Origin: Candidatus Omnitrophota bacterium
GTDB lineage: Bacteria; Omnitrophota; Gorgyraeia; Tantalellales; Tantalellaceae
Length of the DNA stretch: 64,000 nt
Direction: 5' to 3'
NCBI GenBank assembly: GCA_014728075.1
Contig: WJMG01000027.1
Span: 696-64,695 of the forward strand
Notes under the pieces: generated by a model
What the model saw: the letters and a program-made list of their open reading frames with translations, nothing else
What the model was told of the DNA's origin: nothing
Database searches by the model: none
Program-made: the position numbers and the translations under genes
Shown here: positions 573 to 48,308 of the stretch, piece by piece
How positions within the stretch are numbered: position 1 is the stretch's first letter
Layout of the letters: each line of letters begins with the position of its first letter

Positions 573-2021
573 TCAGAGACAACCAAGTCCTTTGAGGGCC
601 GTCCGGACCTCTTCCCTGTCGTCAAACCGCACCTTAACCTCGCCGCGGATCTGATAATCCTCATGTCCTTTTCCCGCTATCAGTATTACATCACCTTCAC
701 CGGCGGACCGCAAAGCTTGAGAGATGGCCTCTCTCCTGTCCGGCGTGACGGAATATGTATCCGCCGACATACCCTTTTCAATGTCGTTTATGATACGGCC
801 GGGGTCTTCGGTCCTCGGGTTATCATTGGTAATAATGACCATATCGCAGAGGTCGGACGCTACCCTTCCCATTACAGGCCTTTTGCTGCGGTCCCTGTCC
901 CCTCCGCAACCGAAAACACAAATAAGCTTATTTTTCACCAGAGGCTTTAGCGCGCAAAGCGCGTTAGCGAGAGCGTCGGCTGTATGCGCGTAATCCACGA
1001 AAACCCTGAAAGGCAATTCGCTGTTCCCGACGGCTTCAAGCCGTCCGGGAGCCGCTCCGGCCTTTTCAAGACCCGAAGATACCTCATCGAAACCGTACCC
1101 CGTACACATAAGGGCGGCCGCGGCTCCCAAAAGATTATAAACATTATGCCGCCCTATCAAACCGGACCTGACCCTGGACCTGGCCCTTCCTCGCCAGACG
1201 AGATCGAACTCGTTACCGTACGCGGAGGCCCTCAGGTTCTCTGCCCTCATATCCGCGGGCTCTTCCATGGCGAAAGTAACGGTCGCCGGCCCCGTTCTCG
1301 CGATGAGCGTCCGAACCTTCGGGTCGTCGGCGTTGAGCACCGCGGTACCGCCGGGTTTAAGCTGTTCGAAAATAAGGGATTTGTCCCTGAAATAAGAATC
1401 CATATCCCCGTGATAATCCAGATGCTCCGGGGTTATGTTAGTGAAAACGGCGCAATCAAGGCCGATACCCCATACCCGTTTTTGAGAAAGCGCGTGGCTC
1501 GATATCTCTATGACAGCATCGGTCAAACCGTTAGAGACCATCTCGGACAGCAGGGAATACACCTTAAAAGCGTCGGGTGTGGTCATCACCGAGGGTTTCA
1601 GTTTATCCCTGCCCGTTTTGGAATGAACGGTGCTTACAAAACCCGTTTCCCGGTTCAAAAGTTCAAGCACGCTCTCCAGTATAAATACTGTACTGGTCTT
1701 ACCGTTCGTCCCGGTCACACCGTATGTCCTGAGCCGTGAAGAGGGGTCCCCGTGAAAGGCCGAAGCGAGTTCCGCCGCGGTTTCCCGGGTGTCCCGGACG
1801 ACCGTAAGGCTGCTCCGTAAAGCGTCCGGGAATCCGGGAGGGCACTGTTCGCATATTACCGCTCGCGCTCCTTTTCCCAGGGCTTCGGCGATATGGTCAT
1901 GCCCGTCACGCTTTACACCCCTCAGGGCGATGAACACATCACCTTTTGATATCCTGCGGGAATCTGTCTTAAGCGTCTCTATAGAAGGTATTTCCAGCCC
2001 TGCGTATGAAATCATGGTCAA
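573..2021 (-). CDS. murE: UDP-N-acetylmuramoyl-L-alanyl-D-glutamate--2,6-diaminopimelate ligase
   Basis: 482-aa ORF with a Mur ligase P-loop (GVTGTNGKTST) and the MurE C-terminal DNPR motif (NDNPRTEDP). It lies between ftsI and murF. Confidence 0.9.
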   Translation of the reverse strand: MTMISYAGLEIPSIETLKTDSRRISKGDVFIALRGVKRDGHDHIAEALGKGARAVICEQCPPGFPDALRSSLTVVRDTRETAAELASAFHGDPSSRLRTYGVTGTNGKTSTVFILESVLELLNRETGFVSTVHSKTGRDKLKPSVMTTPDAFKVYSLLSEMVSNGLTDAVIEISSHALSQKRVWGIGLDCAVFTNITPEHLDYHGDMDSYFRDKSLIFEQLKPGGTAVLNADDPKVRTLIARTGPATVTFAMEEPADMRAENLRASAYGNEFDLVWRGRARSRVRSGLIGRHNVYNLLGAAAALMCTGYGFDEVSSGLEKAGAAPGRLEAVGNSELPFRVFVDYAHTADALANALCALKPLVKNKLICVFGCGGDRDRSKRPVMGRVASDLCDMVIITNDNPRTEDPGRIINDIEKGMSADTYSVTPDRREAISQALRSAGEGDVILIAGKGHEDYQIRGEVKVRFDDREEVRTALKGLGCL

Positions 2022-6281: not shown

Positions 6282-6743
6282 CTACCAGTAGAGCTTTTCG
6301 AAGCGTTCCGAATAACGCTTTATCCATTCTCTAGAAGCGTCCTGGAGAGTCATTTCCCTGCCCAGTTGAAGAGACCGGAGAACGCGGTACTCTTCTATAA
6401 GGTATATTTGTTCGATGAGCTTGACCTTGAAAGCATCGGAATAGGTCACAAAAGCCACTCCGACATTATACAGGCCCGTGGCATCATCTTTCTCAACATG
6501 CATTACCTTAGACCTGATCTTGAAGATCTTATTATACAAAGGCATCTGGAGGTTTATCAGGGAACCGACGGGGACATCCCTGGCAGACCTGAACATAAGC
6601 CCGCCTTCGGAGACATTCACCGTATTTGTCTTCTCGAAATCTGTCTCATCCGCTATCTGGAATTCAAGAGGACTTACCAGAAGATGGCGTAAGAATTTTC
6701 GTTTTTCCTGGCCCTTTCCGTTCATTTCAGCCGGCATGTTCAC
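6282..6743 (-). CDS. PilZ domain protein (c-di-GMP receptor)
   Basis: 153 aa with an RxxxR motif (RKFLRH) and a D/NxSxGG motif (NVSEGG), both typical of PilZ. Confidence 0.7.
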   Translation of the reverse strand: MNMPAEMNGKGQEKRKFLRHLLVSPLEFQIADETDFEKTNTVNVSEGGLMFRSARDVPVGSLINLQMPLYNKIFKIRSKVMHVEKDDATGLYNVGVAFVTYSDAFKVKLIEQIYLIEEYRVLRSLQLGREMTLQDASREWIKRYSERFEKLYW

Positions 6744-9052: not shown

Positions 9053-10000
9053 CTACCGGTTAAAGCACGCGTCGACAAGGTCGTCTATAGTCGAGGTCGC
9101 GAGGCATTGCACCGTATCGGCGCCGCCGTAATATATCTTCACTTCACCGTTATCCTCAGCCACCGCTCCACAGGTAAAAACAACATCATAGGTGAGCCCC
9201 CAGATCTCGTAATCGGTCGTGGGAGAGAGAATGGGAGCTTTTGCTCTTGCGACTATTCTGGAAGGATCGTTAAGATCAAGCAGCATTACTCCGAGGTGGT
9301 ACACATACTGGGCCGCGCACTGCACATTTACCGCGTGATAAATGACAAGCCACCCTTTATCTGTTCTTATGGGAACCGCTCCGGGGCCGTTCTTTTTCCA
9401 CCCCCATTCGTCCTGGCTTTGAGCCACGGCTCTGGATTGACCCCAGTGTATAAGGTCGGGGGAATAGGAAAGCCACATATACCCCTGTCCGTCACCCGTA
9501 TTAGGCCTGTCGAGGCGGCAATAAAGGCCGTTTATCTTTTCCGGGAAAAGCACTCCGTTACGGTTATCGGTCTCGGATATGAAATCCCTGAACTTGAACT
9601 CTTTCATGTCCGGGGATTCAAGGAGGCCGAGCCTGCAGGAATGCCCGCTATGGCACGCGAAAACCACATAATATTTGCCTTCCAGGAGAGTTACTCTGGG
9701 ATCGTAGTACATGCCTGTCGTATATTCCTTGAAATAATCGGTATCCGGCATCTTAATGGGCTCTTTTCTCATCTTGAAGTCTATACCGTTATCCGAGTCA
9801 GCGGGCCAGATGAACTGTTTCATCGAAGGTGTCTCCACCCTGCAGAGCATTACATATTTGCCTTCTTTGGTCTTTACGCATCCGGAATTATATACTCCTT
9901 TTGCCGCCGCGGGAACATCATCCTTTGTGAGTATGGGGTTCCCGGAATACCTCTGCACTATGTTCTCTTTTGTCTTTGGATATACTATAGGCTGTGACAT
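9053..10000 (-). CDS. Glycoside hydrolase family 130 (beta-mannoside phosphorylase-like, DUF377)
   Basis: 315 aa with five-bladed propeller-type motifs. I recognise it as GH130/PF04041 from the overall pattern (GxxYYGGAD, WGxSxxD). Confidence 0.8.
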   Translation of the reverse strand: MSQPIVYPKTKENIVQRYSGNPILTKDDVPAAAKGVYNSGCVKTKEGKYVMLCRVETPSMKQFIWPADSDNGIDFKMRKEPIKMPDTDYFKEYTTGMYYDPRVTLLEGKYYVVFACHSGHSCRLGLLESPDMKEFKFRDFISETDNRNGVLFPEKINGLYCRLDRPNTGDGQGYMWLSYSPDLIHWGQSRAVAQSQDEWGWKKNGPGAVPIRTDKGWLVIYHAVNVQCAAQYVYHLGVMLLDLNDPSRIVARAKAPILSPTTDYEIWGLTYDVVFTCGAVAEDNGEVKIYYGGADTVQCLATSTIDDLVDACFNR

Positions 10001-10146: not shown

Positions 10147-11190
10147 TCAGAACTCGATAACGGAATCGACGGTCCCGAAAATATTCTGTTCCCTTTTGGG
10201 GTTCTCCGGGTCGTAGGTCCAGTTATCGTCAACAAGGAATTTGTAACGGTACTTCCCTCTTTTAAGGTTAAAATGAGCGGACCAGGTGCCGTTCTCGAGC
10301 TTATTAAGGCGATTAGCCTCTGTCTTTTCCCATCCGTTAAAATCCCCGAGCACATAAACTTTGCCTGCCTTGGGGGCGTGCAGCATGAACTCTTTCATAA
10401 GTATATCGTGGCGGATCTTTTCGGCGGTAAGAAGCTCGCTGGTCATGTTGTAGAAATCAAGAGCCGAGGAACACTTGGGATCGTATTCGAAAATAGTCTT
10501 TCCGTTCTTAGCGGCTTCCTTTATCCTCACGCTCCCGCGTATCCTGGTCTCGAGAAGGTAGGGGCCGAGCTTATTCTTAGCGTCCGTCTCAAGCTGCCTG
10601 GCGAACCTCGTCCTCTGGTCGTATATGTTCAAAACAAAGAAAACCCCGGGCCGTCTTCCCGTCTCTTCCTCCAGCAGACCCGTAACCCTGTAAAGGCTGT
10701 TTATCCCGTTGAACGAAAAATAGCTCAGGTCCATGGGGACTATTATAGTATCGGCTGAATACATGGCGTTCAGCGTAAGGAAACCGAAACTGGGAGGAGA
10801 ATCTATTATCACATATTCGTACTGGTCGAAAAAAGGATCTTTAAGTGTATTCGACAATATAGCTGCCGCCCCGTTCATGCCCCCCAGGTTGATCTCGGCC
10901 GCGCTGAGCATCATGTTCGCGGGAATAAAGTGTAAAAGTTCTCTGTCGTTTATGACCAGTTCTTCGGTCGGGAACTGTATGTTATCAAAATGGGAACGGA
11001 ATATATCATAGGATGTACGCCGTTCGGAGGATCTCTCTGTATAGCCCATCGCGTAGGTAGCGTGAGCCTGCGGGTCCATATCTATAAGAAGCGTTTTGCT
11101 GCCCAGTCTCGAAAGCGCTGCGGCCATATTGACGGCAACGGTCGTCTTTCCGCAACCGCCTTTTTGGTTCGCGACAGATATTATCCTCAT
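10147..11190 (-). CDS. ParA/MinD-family P-loop ATPase fused to a C-terminal CBM48 / AMPK-beta glycogen-binding domain
   Basis: The N-terminus has the deviant Walker A KGGCGKTT and the ParA Walker B-like IIDSPP (PF01656/CbiA type). The last ~80 aa (GKVYVLGDFNGWEKT...YRYKFLVDDNWTYDPENPK...GTVDSVIEF) align residue-for-residue with the AMPK beta GBD (VYLSGSFNNW...YKFFVDGQWTHDPSEP...GTVNNIIQV). Confidence 0.8.
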   Translation of the reverse strand: MRIISVANQKGGCGKTTVAVNMAAALSRLGSKTLLIDMDPQAHATYAMGYTERSSERRTSYDIFRSHFDNIQFPTEELVINDRELLHFIPANMMLSAAEINLGGMNGAAAILSNTLKDPFFDQYEYVIIDSPPSFGFLTLNAMYSADTIIVPMDLSYFSFNGINSLYRVTGLLEEETGRRPGVFFVLNIYDQRTRFARQLETDAKNKLGPYLLETRIRGSVRIKEAAKNGKTIFEYDPKCSSALDFYNMTSELLTAEKIRHDILMKEFMLHAPKAGKVYVLGDFNGWEKTEANRLNKLENGTWSAHFNLKRGKYRYKFLVDDNWTYDPENPKREQNIFGTVDSVIEF

Positions 11191-11540: not shown

Positions 11541-12401
11541 ATGATCCCTGAGAACATGCTTAATCAGAAAAAAGAGCGCGACGATATCGACGCGGAACTC
11601 TCGCGGACCTATTTCGGGCCGAGGCCTCATGCCCGCCCCCCGAAGAAGCCGGAAGTTTCACGGGCAAAAAAAATTGCACTTTTCTTCTCGGTCCTTATCA
11701 TCCTGGCCGCGGCGGGGACCTTTCTGTTCGTTATCGCCCGGAACAATGTCTCTTTCACTCTCAATGTGAACCTTGGAGAAACCCCGGAAGATACCGCGGG
11801 CGCGTCAATGTCATCCCCTTCCGGCATGGAATCTTCACTGCTTTACGGTTTCGAACAGAACGATAACAACTGGGAGATCCCGGCATGGGCCACCGTTAAA
11901 ACCGACCATGTCGCAAGCGGTCTCAAGAGAACGGACGAAACGGCAAGCCAGGGGCGCGGTTCTCTAGAGGTTTCAGCGGAAATGCCCTTCCGAAGATGGG
12001 CAGGCGCCCTGGTGGAAATACAGCAGTATCTCGACCTCTCCGGCTACGATCGCCTGGCGGCCGACATTTATCTTCCTCCTGAAGCACCTCCGGGGATGAA
12101 AGGCAAAATGATCCTTACTGTGGGAGAAGACTGGCGGTTCGTGGAGATGTCCTGGGGAAAGAAACTCGCACCCGGAAAATGGACCACCATAGAGGCCGAT
12201 ATTTCGGATTCCTCGCGGGACTGGAAACGCACGGTCGTGGACAGCGCTTTCCGCTCAGACATAAGAAAAATATCCCTCCGCGTCGAATCGGACAACAACC
12301 CCGCCTGGTCGGGAAAGATCTATTTCGACAATGTCAGGGTATTGAAGCCGGTTGTTGCCGAGGAAGAAAACCTCTCCGAAACAACTCCAGAAACGGATTA
12401 G
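11541..12401 (+). CDS. Bitopic membrane protein with C-terminal beta-sandwich (CBM-like) domain
   Basis: 286 aa with one TM helix (IALFFSVLIILAAAGTFLFVIA). The C-terminal GKIYFDNVRV is typical of CBM beta-sandwich endings. It is divergent from the ParA-CBM48 gene. Confidence 0.45.
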   Translation: MIPENMLNQKKERDDIDAELSRTYFGPRPHARPPKKPEVSRAKKIALFFSVLIILAAAGTFLFVIARNNVSFTLNVNLGETPEDTAGASMSSPSGMESSLLYGFEQNDNNWEIPAWATVKTDHVASGLKRTDETASQGRGSLEVSAEMPFRRWAGALVEIQQYLDLSGYDRLAADIYLPPEAPPGMKGKMILTVGEDWRFVEMSWGKKLAPGKWTTIEADISDSSRDWKRTVVDSAFRSDIRKISLRVESDNNPAWSGKIYFDNVRVLKPVVAEEENLSETTPETD

Positions 12402-23193: not shown

Positions 23194-23679
23194 CTATTCC
23201 GGGGATATATCCCTTACTTCGTATGAGAGCGTCCCGGCAGGCACCTCGATCTCTATCCGGTCCCCGACCTTATGCCCCACGATCGCCCGCCCTACAGGGG
23301 AAGAAACGGATATCTTGTCGGCGTCAAAATCCGATTCCTCCTCGGAAACGAGCATGTAGCTGAACTCTTCGCCGGACTCCAGGTCCTTGAGCTTTACGGT
23401 CATTCCAAGCCTCGCCTCGTCTCCGGAAAGAGTGGAACTGTCTATTATATTGGCCCTCGAGAGAACATCCTCAAGATCGGCGATACGCTTTTCGTTCATG
23501 GCCTGCTCTTCCTTGGCGGCATCGTATTCGGCGTTCTCGCTCAGGTCCCCCTGAGCACGGGCCTCGCTCAGCGCCCTGGCTATCTCCCTGCGCTTGGGGC
23601 CTTTAAGATATTCTAGTTCCTCGAGTTTCTTATTATAACCTTCACGGGTCAAAGCAACTCTTCCGTCCCCCATTCTCAT
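23194..23679 (-). CDS. greA: Transcription elongation factor GreA
   Basis: 161 aa with a coiled-coil N-terminus (GDLSENAEYDAAKEEQ) and an FKBP-like C-terminus. Confidence 0.9.
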   Translation of the reverse strand: MRMGDGRVALTREGYNKKLEELEYLKGPKRREIARALSEARAQGDLSENAEYDAAKEEQAMNEKRIADLEDVLSRANIIDSSTLSGDEARLGMTVKLKDLESGEEFSYMLVSEEESDFDADKISVSSPVGRAIVGHKVGDRIEIEVPAGTLSYEVRDISPE

Positions 23680-23939
23680 ACCTCCCTCCTGCTCCGGTAC
23701 TTTGGACTTACCTGATAGATGTTTTCATTCAAGTTGTAATTATATAGCATGAATAGCCCTATTACAAATGTTAATTCAATACATCCCCGGTGACAAGCCG
23801 GGTCTCCGGAGGAAAAAGCACAAAAGCCCCCCTTTTGTAAAAAATGAAATAGTTAGTTTTGATATCTTGCTTTTTGTATTTTTATCATTAAAATTGAAGT
23901 TGAGTATCGGGAACAGTTCTTTCTTAGAAGAAAAGTCAA

Positions 23940-24028
23940 AACGAAAAGGCAAACTATCCGAAAGGATAGGACAGCAAAGTCGCGAGCCTACTTTCCTTAA
24001 CCGGGATACGGCAGTCGGACTACCGAAT
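23940..24028 (+). promoter_or_regulatory. Candidate c-di-GMP-I (GEMM) riboswitch aptamer
   Basis: GGCAAAC, then a CUAUCC-GAAA-GGAUAG hairpin, then GGACAGCAAAGUC ... GGCAGUCGGACUACCGAA. This matches the conserved GEMM-I core (GGCAAACC, P1b with GAAA loop, GGACGCAAAGCC, 3' GGCAGCCGGGUUACCGA). It lies in the 5' leader of the GH gene at 24122. Confidence 0.6.
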
Positions 24029-24058
24029 TTTGAGGACCCCTTTTTGGGACTCTCATAG

Positions 24059-24099
24059 CCCTATCGGATAGTTACCTTTTCAGTCTGGTAGGGTTTTTT
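24059..24099 (+). terminator. Putative riboswitch expression-platform terminator
   Basis: CCCTAT, a 24-nt loop and GTAGGG (with a G-U wobble), followed by TTTTTT. An AGGAGG RBS lies 6 nt before the ATG. Confidence 0.4.
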
Positions 24100-24121
24100 A
24101 TTTTGAAAGGAGGTTTCAAAA

Positions 24122-25222
24122 ATGGGGATTAAAAGGATTTTCAACAAAATAGCGGCTCTCGCGACCGTATGCTGTTTCGTAATATCGGGAATGACCGGTA
24201 CCGTGACAGCCTTTTCCGAAACCGCTCTTATGCCGCTTCAAAAAGGCATGTGCTATGTGACCTGGGACAGGGACCGTTTCGCAACACAATATTCCGACAA
24301 TTCACTTACAAAGCTCTCAGAGATGGGAGTCGAGTACATTTCACTTTGCGTGACCGAGTATCAGGAAAAATACAACTCGACACGCATAGAGGAAACGGAC
24401 AAAACACCCAGCTCCAGAAGCGTAAAGCATGTTATAAGGAAAGCACACGACCTCGGCATGAAGGTCATGCTCAAACCGCACATCGACCTTATTGACAAGT
24501 TCGACGGCACTTACTGGAGAGCGGACATCGGGTTCGCGACCGAAAAAGACTGGGAAGAATGGTTCGAGGAATACGAAGACTTCATAATCAAATACGCCAA
24601 GATCGCCCAGAGATGTAAAGTGGATATATTCTGCGTGGGGACCGAGCTGTCTTTCACCGCCCAGAAAGAGGATAAATGGCGCGAGATAATAGCAAAGGTC
24701 AAAAAGATCTATGACGGGAAACTGGTCTATGCCGCCAACTGGGATAATTTCAAGAACATAGGTTTCTGGGACGAAATGGACTATGTGGGTATAGACGCCT
24801 ATTTCCCCCTCTCCTATGACCCGGATCCGTCGATGGAAGACCTGAAAAAGGGTTGGGAAAAATGGAAAAAGGACATTGCCTACTGGCAGAGCCAGATAAA
24901 CAAACCGATAATATTCACCGAACTCGGGTACGCCTCGACAGCTCACGCGCCTTACTCTCCCTGGAAAGGGGGCTATAGCGGTAACGCTGACCCTGAAATA
25001 CAGGCCAAATGCTACAAAGCTTTCTTTGACACGGTCTGGAAAGAACCATGGTTCGCGGGTGTGTACTGGTGGAAGTGGGACACTAACACAAGGGCCGGAG
25101 GAGAACATAACAGGCAGTTCACTCCTCAGAACAAGCCCGCACAGCGTATAATAGAGGCTAACTACAAAGGCATGCCCGGAGATTCGGACTACGCAATGAT
25201 AAAAGCCGAAGATCAACGGTAG
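24122..25222 (+). CDS. Secreted clan GH-A (TIM-barrel) glycoside hydrolase, beta-mannanase-like, paralog 1
   Basis: It has a signal peptide and GH-A catalytic pair candidates, CVGTELS (acid/base) and IFTELGY (nucleophile). It is 60-70% identical to the adjacent paralog by eye. Confidence 0.65.
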   Translation: MGIKRIFNKIAALATVCCFVISGMTGTVTAFSETALMPLQKGMCYVTWDRDRFATQYSDNSLTKLSEMGVEYISLCVTEYQEKYNSTRIEETDKTPSSRSVKHVIRKAHDLGMKVMLKPHIDLIDKFDGTYWRADIGFATEKDWEEWFEEYEDFIIKYAKIAQRCKVDIFCVGTELSFTAQKEDKWREIIAKVKKIYDGKLVYAANWDNFKNIGFWDEMDYVGIDAYFPLSYDPDPSMEDLKKGWEKWKKDIAYWQSQINKPIIFTELGYASTAHAPYSPWKGGYSGNADPEIQAKCYKAFFDTVWKEPWFAGVYWWKWDTNTRAGGEHNRQFTPQNKPAQRIIEANYKGMPGDSDYAMIKAEDQR

Positions 25223-25242
25223 AGCGATAATATATGTCACGC

Positions 25243-25277
25243 AAAAAAGCAGCGGCATTAGCCGCTGCTTTTTTTTG
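25243..25277 (+). terminator. Rho-independent terminator
   Basis: AGCAGCGGC, loop atta, GCCGCTGCT, then TTTTTTTT. Confidence 0.7.
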
Positions 25278-25335
25278 CCCTGCCCTCTCCTGATCGGCGG
25301 GCAAAAAATGGATCTCTTGGTTAAGATAATAAAAG

Positions 25336-25364
25336 TTGACTTATACGGGCTTACATTTTATAAT
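25336..25364 (+). promoter_or_regulatory. Consensus sigma70 promoter for GH paralog 2
   Basis: TTGACT, a 17-nt spacer, then TATAAT. Confidence 0.6.
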
Positions 25365-25461
25365 GCCAATGCGTTCACAGTAAAAAAATAAATAGTTTGC
25401 ACACATTTCCCGTCCCCTCGGATCTGGAGGGTGGGAGCAACAAGGGACGGAGTGGAACATT

Positions 25462-26568
25462 ATGGAGGTCTATACATCAGGCTTAGCCGGGAAGCTTAAA
25501 TCTTTTCTTTTATTTTTTGTATCGATACTGAGCCTTTCTTTTTTAACCCCTGATCCGGTCGTTTCGAACAGTTTTGAGATACCGTATCTCCAAAAAGGGC
25601 TCTGTTACGCGACATGGGACAAGGACAGGTTCCTTTCCCCCTATTCCGACATGTCCCTCAAGGAACTTGCCGGCACCGGAGCCGACTTTGTACAGATAAT
25701 AGTCACGCAATACCAGGAAAATCCAGATTCTACGGACATCAGAAGAACGGAACATACCCCGAGCGACAAAAGCCTCGTTCACGCCATCAAAAAAGCACAG
25801 GCCAACGGCCTCAAGGTAATGCTCAAGCCTCACATTGACCTGATAAACAATTCCGGAAATTTATATCACAGGGCCGATATAGGCTTTGCCCGCGAAAAAG
25901 ACTGGCGGGAGTGGTTCGATTCTTACAGTAAGTTCATCCTGCATTACGCCCGCATAGCCGAGGCCACCGGCGTGAACATCTTCTGCGTCGGCACCGAACT
26001 TTCCTTCACCACCCAGAAGAACGACCTCTGGGAAAAAAAGGTTATCTTTCCGGTCAGAGAAATATATAAAGGAAAGCTCATATACGCGGCCAACTGGGAC
26101 AATTATTCCATGGTAGAATTCTGGGACGAACTGGACTATGTGGGGATAGACGCATACTTTCCCTTGACGGCGGAACCGGACCCGTCCGTCAGCGAACTGT
26201 CACGCGGCTGGAAAAGATGGCAACATGAGCTTGCCGGATGGCAATCATACATCGGAAAACCTGTGATCTTCACCGAAATAGGATACCCCAGCGCGGCGCA
26301 CGCGGGGTACGAACCCTGGAAAAGCGGTTATACCGGCAACGCCGACCCGGAACTCCAGGCAAGATGCTATAAAGCTTTTTTCAATACCGTATGGGGGTCC
26401 CCCTGGCTGAAAGGCGTATACTGGTGGAAATGGGATACCAGCGTTTACGCGGGCGGAAAGAACAACAGGCAGTTCACCCCGCAGAACAAACCCGCCGAAA
26501 AGATCCTGAAAGAGAACTACCGCATACCCCAGCGGCATCGAAGATTCATTATAGCCCGGGACGACTAG
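25462..26568 (+). CDS. Secreted clan GH-A glycoside hydrolase, paralog 2 (tandem duplicate)
   Basis: It has a signal peptide and the same FCVGTELS / IFTEIGY motifs. It is collinear with paralog 1 along its full length. Confidence 0.65.
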   Translation: MEVYTSGLAGKLKSFLLFFVSILSLSFLTPDPVVSNSFEIPYLQKGLCYATWDKDRFLSPYSDMSLKELAGTGADFVQIIVTQYQENPDSTDIRRTEHTPSDKSLVHAIKKAQANGLKVMLKPHIDLINNSGNLYHRADIGFAREKDWREWFDSYSKFILHYARIAEATGVNIFCVGTELSFTTQKNDLWEKKVIFPVREIYKGKLIYAANWDNYSMVEFWDELDYVGIDAYFPLTAEPDPSVSELSRGWKRWQHELAGWQSYIGKPVIFTEIGYPSAAHAGYEPWKSGYTGNADPELQARCYKAFFNTVWGSPWLKGVYWWKWDTSVYAGGKNNRQFTPQNKPAEKILKENYRIPQRHRRFIIARDD

Positions 26569-26587
26569 AAGAAATTTTCGGACAAAA

Positions 26588-26614
26588 CAAGGGCCGGGCA
26601 ATGCCCGGCCCCTT
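26588..26614 (-). terminator. Hairpin terminator (GGGCCGGGC aat GCCCGGCCC)
   Basis: A GC hairpin with a T-rich tract on the minus strand. It may also end the plus-strand GH transcript. Confidence 0.5.
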
Positions 26615-26640
26615 ATAAACTCCTCTTATACCACCGGCCG

Positions 26641-27099
26641 CTATTCTTTTTGCTTTTTGTCCGGCGATCCCGGATCGATACCCCATTCTATTAGTTTTCC
26701 TTCAGGCCCGAAGATCAGATAGACCTTCTCGCCGGTGAAAAAATCAGAAGAGGCCGCTTTGTAAACCCATCTCACTTCCCCCGCCTTTTCCCCGGGGATC
26801 TCCACCACCGGTTCACCGAAGTCTTTTTTCACCTCAAAAGCGGCAGCCCCTTTTCTCAGGGCTTCGTGCTCGACCGCCTTTTTGACCTCTTTAAAGCTCC
26901 GGGTCTCTTCCCTGTATTCCCTTTCCATCTTTCCCCTGTCTCCGGAAAGCTCCATAAGAGCGCCGACGCCATGCTTGGATTTTACCCACTTCTTTTTTTT
27001 GCCGCCTCCGAAGAAAGCGTCCGCGCTTTCGGGAAAGACACTCGCCAAAAGGAATGTCAAGGCCGCCACAGCGGAAATTATCCTGGATCCGGTAACCAT
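26641..27099 (-). CDS. Hypothetical secreted protein
   Basis: 152 aa with a signal peptide (AVAALTFLLASVFPESADA). Confidence 0.45.
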   Translation of the reverse strand: MVTGSRIISAVAALTFLLASVFPESADAFFGGGKKKKWVKSKHGVGALMELSGDRGKMEREYREETRSFKEVKKAVEHEALRKGAAAFEVKKDFGEPVVEIPGEKAGEVRWVYKAASSDFFTGEKVYLIFGPEGKLIEWGIDPGSPDKKQKE

Positions 27100-39577: not shown

Positions 39578-41038
39578 TTAGAAGCTGAGAGCAACGGTAC
39601 CTACGATATCTGTAGCGACATCATCGGTCCCATTGTTGTTCTCAAGAGCGTCACCCGGGAAGAACCATGCGGACAGAAGTCCGAAGGTAACATCCTCGGT
39701 GTAGTCCCATGTAAGAGAAAGATCGACCTCGTCACCGACATTCTTATCGGTGTTCTGGTTCGAATAATCCTCAGCGAGCCAGAAGTGACCATAGAGAGCC
39801 TCGAAAGTAAGGCTGTCGGTCGGCTCAAGGGTCAGCCTGCCGAGCACCTGGTGCTGGTTGGTGTGCGAAGGCGTGCTGGCGGTGGCTGTCCTGTAGAACA
39901 CATTCTGGAATTCCCTTATAGCGGTGTCGAACTTACCCCTGTACATGGAATCCCATCCGTTGTAATCGCCCGTGGTAACGGCGTTCCTGTTTCCGACATC
40001 TTCCTGACCGGAATAGAAGATGTACTCGGCGCTGACAACAGGCCTCCAGGCGAAATCGTCCTGCCAGTAGCGGCATTCCACCATGGCGTCGATCGCCCAG
40101 GCGCTTCTGTCGCGTTCGCTCTGCTGCCCGGCTATACCGAGGAAATCACCGGTCTGGTAAGCACCTTCAAGAGCTATGGTCCAGTCTTCGATCGGGTCGA
40201 AGCTGCCCCTGAGGCCGAAGGTGTGCACATCGTCGTTGTAAACATCGTTAACAGTGGAAGTGTTCATCACGGTGTTGGCAACGGTGGACGGGTTCCTGTC
40301 CTGCTTGAAGAACCAGTAAGCTTCGGCTTCTCCGTTGTAGTTGTCGAACACATAGCCTACATTCAGGCCCCACAGGTTGATGTCGTCGTCGGCCCTTCTC
40401 GCGTTCTCGCTTATCTTGGCGAAAACACCGTCGATGGTCCACGGATCGTAGTCGAGAGTCGCCCTTATGGCGTCAAAGGACTTGACCGCGGTGTACTCCA
40501 TCGGCCAGAAACCGCCGGAAGGATCCTGCATGTTGGCTCCGATGATGAAGCCTTTACCGAACCACAGGTCCTGGCGACCTATCCTGAGTGTGAGCGGAGA
40601 GTAAAGGAACTCTTTCAGCTCAACATAAGCGAGGTCCACGAGAACGCTGTAAGCGTCGGTCTGGCCCGGGGTAGCGCCCCTGGCGACAACGACATCGTTG
40701 ATGTCGTCGATCATGCCGAGCTCGCCCGCTGCCTGGCCGGTCTGGAGCCCGTCGCCCCACACCCTCTGGTTCACGAGACGGACAACACCGGATACATTAT
40801 CGGTGAGATCGGCGTCTATCTGAACCTCGGCGGTGCTGGTGAGGTAGCTCGCCCAGTTGTTGGTCTGGAGACCGGTGTTCGAGTTATCGGCGTCACTGGC
40901 GTCCAGATCGTAGTTGTTCCTGAGAAAACTGCGAAGAGTGATGTCTCCGCTTACCTTAACGCTCTGGGTTTCCGCGTAAGCTATGGCGGAAACGGCAAAT
41001 ACGAGCGCTATAACGCAAAGTACTTTCATTAATTTCAT
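39578..41038 (-). CDS. Outer-membrane beta-barrel protein (porin-like)
   Basis: It has a signal peptide, a C-terminal ...VALSF ending in Phe, and an alternating amphipathic pattern. Confidence 0.6.
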   Translation of the reverse strand: MKLMKVLCVIALVFAVSAIAYAETQSVKVSGDITLRSFLRNNYDLDASDADNSNTGLQTNNWASYLTSTAEVQIDADLTDNVSGVVRLVNQRVWGDGLQTGQAAGELGMIDDINDVVVARGATPGQTDAYSVLVDLAYVELKEFLYSPLTLRIGRQDLWFGKGFIIGANMQDPSGGFWPMEYTAVKSFDAIRATLDYDPWTIDGVFAKISENARRADDDINLWGLNVGYVFDNYNGEAEAYWFFKQDRNPSTVANTVMNTSTVNDVYNDDVHTFGLRGSFDPIEDWTIALEGAYQTGDFLGIAGQQSERDRSAWAIDAMVECRYWQDDFAWRPVVSAEYIFYSGQEDVGNRNAVTTGDYNGWDSMYRGKFDTAIREFQNVFYRTATASTPSHTNQHQVLGRLTLEPTDSLTFEALYGHFWLAEDYSNQNTDKNVGDEVDLSLTWDYTEDVTFGLLSAWFFPGDALENNNGTDDVATDIVGTVALSF

Positions 41039-45442: not shown

Positions 45443-46696
45443 CTACGGACTTTTTTCTTCATTCCAGATAAAGACCTTATCGTTCCTCCTCACCCTGAAA
45501 GGCACCTTGACCCCTACCGCGGTCCCCTGGGCAACCTCCCTCACCGGAGAGTGTTCTATCTCCATATCCTCCAGCGTAAAAAATCCCGCCGGCGTGGACC
45601 GTCCCGTTATCAGGATCTTCTGTCCCGCGTATAAGGGGGCCGCCTTCACGAGAATTTCGGCGACACTTATCTTTTTGTAGTATTTGACGACCTCCCCTAC
45701 ATATATCTTTTCGTACTTCTTACTGATCTCCCCCCCAAGGTCTTCCGGACGCCCTAAGTAGAACCCACTGGAAAATCCCCGGTTGAAAGCGCCCCTTAGT
45801 TTCTCGAAGATACCGTGCTTCAGCTTATCGTCAAGGCCGCCTCTGAAATAAGCGTCTATAGCTTCTTTATAAGCGGAAGTGACCACGGCGCAGTATTCCG
45901 GGGACCTCATCCTTCCCTCGATCTTAAAAGCGTCTACCCCCGCATCTATGAGCCTGTCGATGAACATTACCGTACAGAGGTCCCTCGGGCTCAATATATA
46001 GTCCTCTCCGAGCACATACTCACATTCGGGCCGTCCTTCTTCCGGGATATCCGTTATCCTGTATTTTCGCCTGCAGGGTTGCAGGCAATCTCCCCTGTTA
46101 GCTGACCTGTTAAAGGAAAGCTGAGAAAGAAAACACCTGCCGGAAATACTCACGCACATAGCCCCGTGGACAAAGACCTCTATCTCGCAATCTATGCCGG
46201 CTTTTCGTATTTTGCTCTTTATCGCGGCTATCTCAGAGAGACCGCACTCGCGGGCAAGAACGATCCTTTTAACTCCGGCCGAGGAATAGTATCTGACCGC
46301 TTCGAAATTGGAAACACTGGCCTGTGTCGAAAGGTGGACCTCCATGCCCAGTTCAAGGGCCATGGACATCGCGGCCATGTCCCATGCTATGACCCCGTTA
46401 ACTCCGGCCGAGGAAGCCGCTTCAAGCAGTCTTTTTATCTTACCGGTCTCACGGTCATATATAGTAATGTTCAGGGCAAGATAGCCTTTTTTCTTTCTGG
46501 CCCGGAGAAATTCCATCACTTTCCCCATCTCAAGCGCGTCGAAATTGGACGCAGAATGACGCATGTTCATACCCTTTACACCGAAATAAACGGCATCACA
46601 CCCCGCCTCGACCGAACTGGTCAGCGATGGCCAGTCCCCTGCGGGAGAAAGGAGCTCGGGCTTCTTTTTATAAACTGTATCTTTCTTTTTCCTCAT
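45443..46696 (-). CDS. Peptidase U32 family protein
   Basis: 417 aa with a U32 Cys-rich core (GAMC...SGRC). Confidence 0.75.
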   Translation of the reverse strand: MRKKKDTVYKKKPELLSPAGDWPSLTSSVEAGCDAVYFGVKGMNMRHSASNFDALEMGKVMEFLRARKKKGYLALNITIYDRETGKIKRLLEAASSAGVNGVIAWDMAAMSMALELGMEVHLSTQASVSNFEAVRYYSSAGVKRIVLARECGLSEIAAIKSKIRKAGIDCEIEVFVHGAMCVSISGRCFLSQLSFNRSANRGDCLQPCRRKYRITDIPEEGRPECEYVLGEDYILSPRDLCTVMFIDRLIDAGVDAFKIEGRMRSPEYCAVVTSAYKEAIDAYFRGGLDDKLKHGIFEKLRGAFNRGFSSGFYLGRPEDLGGEISKKYEKIYVGEVVKYYKKISVAEILVKAAPLYAGQKILITGRSTPAGFFTLEDMEIEHSPVREVAQGTAVGVKVPFRVRRNDKVFIWNEEKSP

Positions 46697-48308
46697 CTTC
46701 GCTGGTCCAGTGGAAAAGCACCTTTTTTTCCTTAACCGCTTTGTAAGCGATTATATAGGCGGCAGCGCTGATCCCCATGTTAGGCGTACCGTCAGGCCTT
46801 CCTTCGACGCTCGAAATGTCTATTTCGCGGAAATACCTCAGGCCCTGTCTGTCTTCGGCCAGCACGAGAGCGCAAAGGACCTCCTCGGCATCCGGCCCTA
46901 CAGCAGTTATCCTCAATTTGTCACCCTCCTTTAAGGAAAATTCCCTTACGGCCATCGGGTCGGTCATGAGCGATCTTTTCCATCCTTTCTGTATCTGGAC
47001 ATTGGACATCCGGCCGGAAACAAAATCCGCCGCCATTCTCGAAAAATAAATATCGAGTCCCGAGGGATGGTTCACCACGATATCCACAACGGATTTTTTA
47101 GCGGTCTGGTACTCATAAAAATGATAGCCTTTCCTGCGGTTGGCGTTAGCGGCCCGGATACCCTCGAGAAAATTCTCGGCCTCTTCGTCCTTACCCATTT
47201 TCACAAGCGCGGCAACATAGACTCCCGTGTACCAGGGCCAGCTGCCGCCGTTATGATAATGCCCGATATGTTCCTTGAACCTGTACTGATGGAGTTTTTT
47301 CGAACGGAAAGTATTCTCCTGGAAAAAAGGGTAATGGGCGGGCACCAGAGGGGCTATCTTCCCGGTGATCCGTCCGATAAAATCCACTATCTTCTGCGCC
47401 TGCCTGCGGGAAGCCACCCCGGTCAATAAAGAGAGACTGTTACCGAAAGCGTCGAAAATACCGTGTGACTCCCGGAAGCATTCTTCGGGGTCCTTGGACC
47501 TCACATAGAAAAAATGCATGAGATATCCGGCGGCCTCAAGGTCGATCTTTCTGCGCATGATCTCGTACACCCTGTCCTTCTTGGTATCGGAGTTCTTTAT
47601 CCAGAACTTGTTCCTTACGAGATTCTTGACCTTCCCGGCCTTATCGTAATAGAACTGGCTTTTTTTGTCTCCCACCACCTCAAGCATGTACGCGTATTTC
47701 CTCAGTGCCATGTACCAGAGGACCTCGTCGTAAAGCACGAATCCCTCCTGAAGGTATTCATCAGCCCAGTTGCCGGCGCGCGGGATATAAAGGAGTCCGC
47801 ACTTGGGGTCTTCCCAGACCTCTTCCAGATAACAAACGGCCTTCTCGATAGCGGGATAGAACCCCTCAAAAGCTTTCTGGTCCTTACTGAAAAGAAAATA
47901 CTGCACACATCCTATGATGAAAAGCGTATTAGGGTCTACCCGCGGATTAATGATCCCGTAACTGACCTTGCCGTCGTATGACACATTACTCGGCACGGCC
48001 CCGTCTTTTCTCTGGTTTCGTATAAGGGTCTCAAGACTGGTCCTGAACCCTTTTATAAGATCGTCCTCACCGGAAAGAAGCGCCGCCAGTCCCGCCCAGA
48101 CGGCATCCCTCGTGAACAGTCTTTTGTAGTTGTCTATGTCAACGGAGGAAGCGACAAAACCGAGCGGTGGTTTATCGGCGGGGGCGGAAAGTATCTTCCT
48201 GAGCAGGGAAACGGACTCTTCGTACCCAAGCCTGAATTTCACTTCCCGGCTGTTAAATGTTTCGGTGATCTGCATTAATGGTCTTCTCTCTCCGGAAAAA
48301 GCCCACAT
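46668..48308 (-). CDS. Six-hairpin glycoside hydrolase, GH100 (alkaline/neutral invertase)-like with ~100-aa C-terminal extension
   Basis: It has FTRDAVWAGLAAL and GHYHNGGSWPW (GH100-like). Its 3' end overlaps the U32 gene by 29 nt. Confidence 0.55.
   Translation of the reverse strand: MWAFSGERRPLMQITETFNSREVKFRLGYEESVSLLRKILSAPADKPPLGFVASSVDIDNYKRLFTRDAVWAGLAALLSGEDDLIKGFRTSLETLIRNQRKDGAVPSNVSYDGKVSYGIINPRVDPNTLFIIGCVQYFLFSKDQKAFEGFYPAIEKAVCYLEEVWEDPKCGLLYIPRAGNWADEYLQEGFVLYDEVLWYMALRKYAYMLEVVGDKKSQFYYDKAGKVKNLVRNKFWIKNSDTKKDRVYEIMRRKIDLEAAGYLMHFFYVRSKDPEECFRESHGIFDAFGNSLSLLTGVASRRQAQKIVDFIGRITGKIAPLVPAHYPFFQENTFRSKKLHQYRFKEHIGHYHNGGSWPWYTGVYVAALVKMGKDEEAENFLEGIRAANANRRKGYHFYEYQTAKKSVVDIVVNHPSGLDIYFSRMAADFVSGRMSNVQIQKGWKRSLMTDPMAVREFSLKEGDKLRITAVGPDAEEVLCALVLAEDRQGLRYFREIDISSVEGRPDGTPNMGISAAAYIIAYKAVKEKKVLFHWTSEDEEKERYSL

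Follow-up and report, generated by a model that had tools for sequence, protein, structure and literature searches.

A conserved c-di-GMP-I riboswitch precedes a predicted secreted GH113-type glycoside hydrolase gene in Omnitrophota and probably acts as an OFF switch

The window analysed here, a stretch of 64,000 nucleotides from a Candidatus Omnitrophota bacterium (assembly GCA_014728075.1, contig WJMG01000027.1), contains an intergenic leader of 442 bp that runs from the start of greA at 23679 to an ATG at 24122; greA is the upstream neighbour of the leader and lies on the opposite strand. A sequence-only reading had put the leader at 440 bp and had proposed that it holds a class I cyclic diguanylate (c-di-GMP) riboswitch with a terminator as expression platform, placed in front of a gene for a secreted hydrolase of clan GH-A. 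Here we describe this riboswitch, its conservation before the gene family and the way in which it would switch the gene. The elements of the locus are, in order:

23867-23894, plus strand: promoter-like block, with a -35-like TTGCTT (23867-23872), a 16-nt spacer and a -10-like TAAAAT (23889-23894); from conservation
23938-24027, plus strand: c-di-GMP-I (GEMM-I) aptamer; from the RF01051 alignment, our R1 model and an alignment of 22 aptamers
24028-24056, plus strand: pre-terminator segment X, with UUUU at 24028-24031, a local hairpin at 24031-24055 and a predicted anti-Shine-Dalgarno (anti-SD) and anti-start strand at 24037-24054; from folds and shuffles
24058-24104, plus strand: predicted intrinsic terminator, with a 12-bp stem (24058-24069 with 24083-24094) and a 13-nt loop (24070-24082); from fold and conservation
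24106-24124, plus strand: Shine-Dalgarno sequence AAAGGAGG (24106-24113; GGAGG at 24109-24113), 8-nt spacer and ATG (24122-24124); read from the sequence
24122-25222, plus strand: the regulated gene, for a 366-aa glycoside hydrolase of family GH113 (clan GH-A); from Pfam GH113

The aptamer was identified with Rfam. RF01051, the c-di-GMP-I family, matches 23938-24027 (plus strand) with 70.6 bits, the gathering score being 35 (E 8e-12 over the 64-kb window), and the alignment takes in the entire model, positions 1-87 of 87. At gathering thresholds this is the sole Rfam 15 match in the whole window; a permissive local scan (23600-26700, E<=1) left the RF01051 result unchanged and otherwise added noise. 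Nothing in 23600-26700 matches the c-di-GMP-II family (RF01786) at E<=1, nor does anything in the window reach its gathering score. Our own covariance model, R1, scores the same segment at 95.9 bits. Membership of RF01051 is far above chance, and on its sequence the segment is almost certainly a class I c-di-GMP (GEMM-I) riboswitch aptamer. The Infernal comparison suggested by the sequence-only reading was thereby run with both families and came out in its favour, and the hallmarks of GEMM type I that it had recognised are borne out by a full-model match at twice the gathering score. The motifs it had picked out are likewise in place: GGCAAAC (23948-23954), the hairpin CUAUCC-GAAA-GGAUAG (23954-23969), GGACAGCAAAGUC (23969-23981) and GGCAGUCGGACUACCGAA (24010-24027). 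The parts of the aptamer, all on the plus strand and taken from the cmscan alignment unless stated otherwise, are:

23948, plus strand: equivalent of G20, an unpaired G preceding two G-C pairs
23949-23950 with 23974-23975, plus strand: the two G-C pairs
23954-23959 with 23964-23969, plus strand: P2 helix
23960-23963, plus strand: GAAA tetraloop capping P2
23972, plus strand: equivalent of C44, by consensus position
23976, plus strand: equivalent of A47
23978-24021, plus strand: P3 helix with a receptor-like internal loop
24014, plus strand: equivalent of G83, by consensus position
24023, plus strand: equivalent of C92

The internal loops of P3, UACU (23989-23992) and UAC (24007-24009), stand where the consensus has the CUAA/uAu tetraloop receptor, and a candidate P1 is formed by AAAA (23938-23941) opposite UUUU (24028-24031). 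RNAalifold, applied to 22 related aptamers with no input from Rfam, recovered P2 and P3, and 17 of the 21 pairs showed compensatory changes; the tetraloop-capped hairpin of the sequence-only reading and the P3 helix were thus found independently. C23972 and G24014 occupy the conserved GAC and AG positions and are kept in relatives, their assignment to C44 and G83 being by consensus position only; in Vc2, P2 is linked to P3 by an interhelical Watson-Crick pair of C44 with G83.

For the ligand pocket we adopted the numbering of the Vibrio cholerae aptamer Vc2 (G20, A47, C92), which we mapped through the Rfam consensus and, in part, through the Vc2 sequence. The two guanines of the ligand pair with G20 and C92 of Vc2, one with each, and the backbone of A47 touches a ligand 2'-OH (PMC5888326, PMC4744006). 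The equivalents in the window, G23948, A23976 and C24023, are invariant or nearly so in the 22 related aptamers. An A in place of G20 is, according to work on Geobacter, said to change the specificity to that of GEMM-Ib aptamers, which respond to 3',3'-cyclic GMP-AMP (cGAMP); the window aptamer has G at 23948, not A, in the G20 column. The pocket formed by G23948 and C24023 is therefore of the c-di-GMP type in its sequence, and c-di-GMP would be the expected ligand.

The gene behind the leader is monocistronic. Its product (24122-25222) matches Pfam GH113 (PF22612) with 225.8 bits, the cut-off being 27, and its N-terminus resembles a signal peptide (MGIKRIFNKIAALATVCCFVISGMTGTVTA/FS), of Sec type by eye. 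Among proteins of solved structure, the best relatives are the GH113 endo-beta-1,4-mannanases 4cd6 and 3civ (phmmer E 3e-35). E175 and E267 align with chain residues E151 and E231 of 4cd6, which we take to be its catalytic glutamates, and both are invariant among 30 homologs. We therefore read the product as a predicted secreted GH113-type (clan GH-A) glycoside hydrolase, in line with the secreted GH-A hydrolase proposed earlier. It is identical to GF408_02455 of a Candidatus Omnitrophica metagenome-assembled genome (MAG). The gene family is annotated as hypothetical nearly everywhere; one source names a homolog a GH17-type glucanase, and a GTA TIM-barrel-like Pfam domain is also matched by the tandem paralog described below and by many homologs (the latter in precomputed annotation).

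The association of aptamer and gene extends well beyond the window. An alignment of 30 homologs gave 80 loci from species-representative genomes. Of the 20 closest genome loci, 18 have a match of the c-di-GMP-I clan at gathering score immediately ahead of the gene and in its orientation, and 7 of the next 10 also have an aptamer upstream (25/30 in all). The aptamer is absent, single cases excepted, before the more distant Omnitrophota paralogs (~45% identical) and before archaeal and other homologs. A covariance model built from 22 related aptamers and run on 80 metagenome loci added 23 aptamers before GH113-like genes, of which 3 belong to duplicate leaders and 2 are truncated by the end of a contig; the genome and metagenome loci together yield 45 distinct leaders. 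Because the aptamer precedes the gene across both sets of loci, the pairing is an old and conserved feature of the lineage. A position kept before orthologous genes in dozens of genomes, compensatory changes in both aptamer and platform, and an E-value of 8e-12 over the full-length model are hard to reconcile with a decayed or chance aptamer-like sequence of no regulatory role, an explanation to which we attach next to no weight.

Among 43 related aptamers before GH113-like genes, 6 have A instead of G in the G20 column (e.g. GAUAAUAGCAAAC): L029 2286-2388, L030 2309-2403, L096 89-185, L101 203-342, L103 107-262 and L116 197-294. It is possible that these sister aptamers are cGAMP-responsive versions of the same regulon. 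Their occurrence before the same gene family is also what could be said for a different cyclic dinucleotide as the ligand in the window, for instance 3',3'-cGAMP as in GEMM-Ib; set against the c-di-GMP-type pair G23948 and C24023, we regard this as very improbable.

Further variation was seen among the related loci. Rfam places four aptamers (L007 2290-2380, L020 1535-1678, L026 2317-2401 and L059 1509-1585) in the variant family RF03167 (c-di-GMP-I-GGC) rather than in RF01051; L059 is from an Elusimicrobiota MAG. Additional c-di-GMP-I aptamers occur in L025 and L023, where they lie on the other strand and point away from the GH113-like gene. In L025 the aptamer is at 1937-2020 (minus strand), with an open reading frame (ORF) at 1930..1706 (minus strand); in L023 two aptamers, at 1922-2015 and 1492-1586 (both minus strand), stand in series with a 97-aa ORF in between, the ORFs being 1890..1597 and 1485..1261 (both minus strand). 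In each of the two loci, one of these aptamers lies ahead of the ORF for a conserved protein of 74 aa whose N-terminus resembles a signal peptide (MKKRTVICSVLILLLILVSAVPSFA.. and MKTRLFICSLLIVILSFVLAIPAFA..). The minus-strand ORFs found behind the opposite-strand aptamers of L023 and L025 are small, and none of them is long.

Downstream of the regulated gene lie two features that serve as context and are not part of the switch:

25246-25276, both strands: two-way terminator-like hairpin AAAAAAGCAGCGGCAUUAGCCGCUGCUUUUUUUU between the regulated gene and the second paralog; from the terminator scan
25462-26568, plus strand: second GH113 paralog, with no riboswitch; from its GH113 match

The products of the two tandem genes are 58% identical and both match GH113. 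Ahead of the second there is no RNA family match even at E<=1, and a promoter-like TTGACT-17-TATAAT (11 of 12 consensus positions) occurs at 25336-25364, in agreement with the proposal that only the first of the two has the riboswitch. L002, L006 and L011 likewise have tandem second copies, and there too the aptamer is on the first copy only.

Upstream of the aptamer, the block ATCTTGCTTTTTAGTATTTTAyCATTAAAcTT (23864-23896 in the window), which includes the promoter-like elements listed above, is kept in 9 of 10 related loci and is, from its sequence, probably the promoter. A promoter scan tool chose another site, TTGATA-18-TATCAT at 23859-23888. A second block, TTGTTCTTT (CAGTTCTTT in the window, 23918-23926), lies about 12 nt before the aptamer and is also kept in 9 of 10 related loci.

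The 3' end of the aptamer is 94 nt ahead of the ATG, and between them are the terminator and an anti-SD helix, an arrangement kept in related loci. At 24058-24104 a stable, G+C-containing hairpin is followed by a run of U, as expected of an intrinsic terminator. Its folding energy is -16.6 to -17.3 kcal/mol and its tail consists of U6 (24094-24099), A and UUUU (24101-24104), with U24094 also closing the stem as a G-U pair; a terminator scan tool missed the hairpin at 24058-24094 because of its loop of more than 8 nt. The hairpin CCCUAUCGGAU...CUGGUAGGG at 24059-24093 with U6 (24094-24099) is the one that the sequence-only reading had taken for a terminator-type expression platform, and its conservation in related loci upholds that view: the CCCUAU..AUAGGG terminator with U6 is found in 11 loci (the window and 10 others), with compensatory inner pairs (UA in 6, CG in 5). 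The terminator stem does not overlap the aptamer.

The outer six pairs of the terminator, CCCUAU/AUAGGG (24059-24064 with 24088-24093), are invariant in sequence in 10 of the 11 loci (window, L002-L008, L010, L016 and L089), the window having a G-U wobble as the sixth pair. For a terminator only pairing should matter, not sequence. We considered mimicry of P2 (CUAUUC/GAAUAGG), which fits about 7 of 10 loci, and rejected it since it fails in L003, L005 and L007, where P2 is CUGCUU or CUGUCU; in these three loci it is the inner part of the terminator that follows P2.

The second element of the platform is a helix between 24037-24054 and 24110-24127, which would sequester the Shine-Dalgarno sequence and the start codon. 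It has an energy of -21.2 kcal/mol, reached by 16 of 1000 shuffles. An alignment of whole platforms with MAFFT and RNAalifold recovered the terminator alone, because insertions and deletions misalign the Shine-Dalgarno region; each locus was therefore examined on its own for the anti-SD helix, by comparison with shuffles. An equivalent helix is significant in 10 of the 11 terminator-type loci, each with its own sequence, and appears in the full-length minimum-free-energy folds of all ten loci tested. It encloses the terminator, and its stem does not overlap the aptamer. Another partner was considered for the conserved ACUUUUU of the pre-terminator segment, namely the aptamer core GCAAAGUC; it fits over 4-6 nt only, fails in the window, L008 and L003, and was dropped. 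The extensive, locus-specific partner of the segment that holds this motif is the Shine-Dalgarno/AUG region.

A third helix competes with the terminator. Its predicted strands are:

23943-23960, plus strand: antiterminator 5' strand, GAAAAGG (23943-23949) and AACUAUCCG (23952-23960); from the predicted duplex
24065-24081, plus strand: antiterminator 3' strand, inside the terminator, CGGAUAGUU (24065-24073) and CCUUUUC (24075-24081); from the predicted duplex

GAAAAGG pairs with CCUUUUC and AACUAUCCG with CGGAUAGUU, giving 16 bp at -23.3 kcal/mol, an energy reached by 1 of 1000 dinucleotide shuffles. The 5' strand is the junction strand with the G20 equivalent and G21, together with the complete 5' strand of P2, and for this reason the antiterminator excludes the ligand-bound aptamer. 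It excludes the terminator because it takes up the inner arm and the loop of that hairpin, and it is topologically incompatible with the anti-SD helix.

The order of events was followed in stepwise minimum-free-energy folds of the growing transcript. Transcripts up to 24070 retain the P2 hairpin and part of P3. For transcript ends from 24072 to 24093 the antiterminator is the minimum-free-energy fold, with P2 and P3 lost, with 16 of 16 pairs formed when all are available, and with an advantage of up to 16 kcal/mol over a fold constrained to keep the aptamer. Once the 3' arm of the terminator is complete (24096), aptamer plus terminator (-50.8 kcal/mol) and antiterminator (-50.4 kcal/mol) are equal. 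A ligand-free RNA should therefore enter the antiterminator before the terminator can form, and a ligand-locked aptamer should free the terminator. The 10 other terminator-type loci behave alike: in them the aptamer 5' half forms 8-26 pairs with the region of the terminator, and 8-18 kcal/mol are gained before the terminator is complete.

Comparison across loci lends the antiterminator further support. A downstream complement to the 15-nt 5' strand of the aptamer is present at p<=0.05 against shuffles in 15 of 41 leaders, about 2 being expected. The variable position in GA[U/C]AAAGG tracks the A/G in CCUUU[A/G]UC: C is matched by G in 5 of 6 cases, and U stands with A in 8 and with G in 4. In the window, GAAAAGG is one nucleotide shorter and is matched by CCUUUUC. 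When the 28-nt 5' half of each aptamer was combined with each terminator region, the terminators of 7 of 11 loci had their best partner, out of 11, in their own aptamer, with means of -19.1 kcal/mol (cognate) against -16.05 kcal/mol (permutation p about 1e-4); inside the terminators, GGAUAG, GCAG/AAGC and GACAG are the respective counterparts of the cognate P2 5' strands CUAUCC, CUGCUU and CUGUCU. The gap is small in a shorter comparison of the 15-17-nt 5' strand (cognate -12.05, non-cognate -11.08 kcal/mol) because that strand is nearly invariant, and it is the 28-nt half that is decisive. Taken together, these results make it highly probable that the antiterminator is real. A different antiterminator, made by the 3' strand of P1 or by the stretch that immediately follows the aptamer, was judged coincidental: UUUGAUAG pairs different terminator arms by locus and is absent in the window.

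We propose that these elements act in the following way. The platform would consist of two nested elements, the terminator (24058-24104) inside the anti-SD helix (24037-24054 with 24110-24127), both of which can coexist with a ligand-bound aptamer since neither stem overlaps it. When c-di-GMP is scarce, the aptamer 5' half (23943-23960) would pair with 24065-24081 as soon as these have been transcribed, blocking the terminator hairpin and precluding the anti-SD helix as well; transcription would read through, the ribosome-binding site would stay open and the gene would be ON. When c-di-GMP is bound, the 5' strand would be locked in the aptamer and the terminator would form, and such transcripts as read through would close the anti-SD helix, leaving the gene OFF. 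Control would thus be shared between transcription and translation, and an extracellular glycanase would be made at low c-di-GMP. The direction of the switch, the antiterminator from the 5' half and the anti-SD helix around the terminator go beyond what the sequence-only reading had proposed.

The proposed direction accords with the geometry of two known switches. In Cd1 of Clostridioides difficile, an OFF switch, aptamer and terminator can coexist, whereas in the Geobacter metallireducens pilM riboswitch, an ON switch, the two overlap (PMC9262584). OFF logic fits this rule here because the aptamer and terminator stems do not overlap. The same lack of overlap speaks against an ON switch in which c-di-GMP, bound by the same aptamer, prevents termination or opens the ribosome-binding site. 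Such a switch would need a strand that is released by the ligand and complementary to a terminator arm, and none was found; the aptamer 5' half alone competes strongly with the terminator and co-varies with it, and this half is sequestered in the ligand-bound fold. One route to it does exist, in that UUUU 24028-24031 belongs to P1 and, in one register of the anti-SD helix (UUUUGA with UCAAAA), also forms the outermost part of that helix, which P1 formation could therefore loosen; in most related loci, however, the anti-SD strand begins 15-30 nt past P1. We consider an ON switch unlikely, and an OFF response to c-di-GMP, as computed from these folds and alignments, probable.

Several observations weigh against the proposed OFF mechanism. 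In the full-length RNA, the fold with terminator and anti-SD helix exceeds that with the antiterminator in stability by 2-18 kcal/mol; the antiterminator would therefore be a transient, kinetic state, as for Cd1 (PMC9262584), and read-through transcripts may become translationally silent over time irrespective of ligand. The antiterminator partners are about 120 nt apart, and local folding of the terminator could win kinetically even when no ligand is bound. Co-variation of the antiterminator at its single variable position is modest, and the swap and shuffle statistics ignore shared ancestry. A terminator with a U-run is missing from about half of the related leaders, which must work in another way. 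Finally, no gene with a GGDEF, EAL or HD-GYP domain (diguanylate cyclase or phosphodiesterase) is present among the 39 Pfam-scanned ORFs of the window. A PilZ c-di-GMP receptor is encoded elsewhere in the window, as the sequence-only reading had stated: ORF 6282-6743 (minus strand) matches Pfam PilZ with 42.6 bits (cut-off 22.5) and has the RxxxR and NxSxxG motifs.

Some of these points would suit a switch that is essentially translational, the hairpin and U-run being a constitutive attenuator or stabilising structure and c-di-GMP setting only the closure of the anti-SD helix. In the leaders that lack a U-run terminator, a sequence complementary to the aptamer 5' strand is nevertheless retained downstream; the anti-SD helix shows both conservation and significance, and its closed form is favoured in the full-length RNA. 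Two features of the locus speak against purely translational control: the terminator is conserved in sequence in 11 loci, and the antiterminator 3' strand is placed inside it, which would be pointless if termination were unregulated. We think this explanation quite unlikely. On balance, we favour the complete statement that the leader is a c-di-GMP-I riboswitch which turns off a secreted GH113-type gene by means of an antiterminator and an anti-SD helix, and we hold it with somewhat less assurance than the polarity alone.

Other glycan-related genes lie some 12-15 kb upstream of the leader. These encode a GH130 beta-1,4-mannooligosaccharide phosphorylase (9053-10000, minus strand), a fusion of a ParA/MinD-type ATPase with a CBM48/AMPK glycogen-binding domain (10147-11190, minus strand) and a protein with a mannanase galactose-binding-like domain (11541-12401, plus strand; a weak match, below cut-off). 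Together with the two GH113 genes, the GH130, CBM48 and mannanase-domain genes hint at mannan-type substrates. At 46668-48308 (minus strand) a 546-aa protein has weak matches to glycosidases of the (alpha/alpha)6 type (GH100/invertase-like, MGH1-like, GDE_C) and also, at residues 409-482, a domain resembling HPr of the phosphotransferase system, an unusual fusion.

The rest of the window holds housekeeping genes, including mraZ/mraW and those for a penicillin-binding protein, a Mur ligase, cysK and an lpxA-like protein. An 891-aa ORF (61281-63956, minus strand) has no Pfam match at E<=1e-4. Neither Pfam nor NCBIfam gives a match for a 152-aa ORF (26641-27099, minus strand) that converges on the second GH113 gene and has a signal-peptide-like N-terminus. 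ARAGORN called a tRNA-like element at 40829-40898 (plus strand) with a four-base anticodon (gttg), antisense inside an alginate-export-like ORF (39578-41038, minus strand). The call has no Rfam match at gathering score and is probably a false positive.

The aptamer class is well known, and the riboswitch in the window is a new, well-conserved example of it, not a new kind of RNA switch. In the literature searched, coverage of which was incomplete, we found nothing relevant that links Omnitrophota or Omnitrophica with a riboswitch, c-di-GMP or GH113. The Omnitrophota are very small, possibly host-dependent bacteria, and the locus gives this uncultured phylum a firm, conserved c-di-GMP read-out whose predicted target is a secreted GH113-like glycanase. 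For a gene family annotated as 'hypothetical' it provides a functional lead, linking the family to the choice between sessile and motile life or to attachment, a decision usually under the control of c-di-GMP. The terminator nested in an anti-SD helix and paired with a 5'-half antiterminator offers a compact test case for combined transcriptional and translational control, and the related aptamers ahead of orthologous genes, some with G and some with A at position 20, offer a natural series for the switching of ligand specificity.

More tentatively, the loci may belong to a phylum-wide Omnitrophota c-di-GMP-I regulon comprising the secreted GH113-like glycanases and, in some genomes, the small 74-aa protein. 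Its members would be held by a double lock, a terminator nested in an anti-SD helix, which the 5'-half antiterminator undoes, so that the enzyme is made only at low c-di-GMP. If such a regulon exists, one RNA could act during transcription and again on the finished mRNA; an enzyme made only at low c-di-GMP would be a factor for dispersal, matrix remodelling or the degradation of prey or host glycans; and the sister aptamers with A at position 20 would, in some lineages, bring this gene family under the control of cGAMP.

Comparison with characterised systems sets these features in context. Vc2, the structural reference of RF01051, shares with the window aptamer the GNRA-capped P2, the receptor-like internal loop of P3, the GGCAAAC/GCAAAG core and the ligand-contact positions G20, A47 and C92. 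The window aptamer differs in a 1-nt insertion (A23973) after the C44 equivalent and in its short A/U P1, and also in its host phylum and regulated gene. Its platform, too, is set apart by a clear terminator and anti-SD helix: the mechanisms of Vc1 and Vc2 are described as unclear, and no terminator or anti-SD is apparent for Vc1 (PMC4744006).

The nearest parallel in mechanism is Cd1, a transcriptional OFF switch of the flagellar operon, in which a separate downstream terminator likewise coexists with the aptamer and formation of a competing antiterminator, itself only transiently stable against the terminator, requires an aptamer that the ligand has not locked (PMC9262584). The two would differ in the strand used, since the Cd1 antiterminator employs the 3' strand of the aptamer (A+T+H, PMC9262584) and that of the window the 5' half; in addition, the window terminator is nested in an anti-SD helix, and its target is a secreted glycanase instead of the flagellar operon. 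The GEMM-Ib riboswitch of pilM, which responds to 3',3'-cGAMP as a transcriptional ON switch, has a homologous aptamer fold and is also read out through an intrinsic terminator. There the terminator overlaps the aptamer and the two are mutually exclusive, whereas in the window the stems are separate and the pocket is of the G20 type. As for the enzyme, the GH113 endo-beta-1,4-mannanases of Alicyclobacillus (AaManA, 3civ/4cd6) and Amphibacillus (5ylh) are distant matches to the regulated protein, yet they are found with E-values of 1e-33 to 3e-35 and align with it at both catalytic glutamates.

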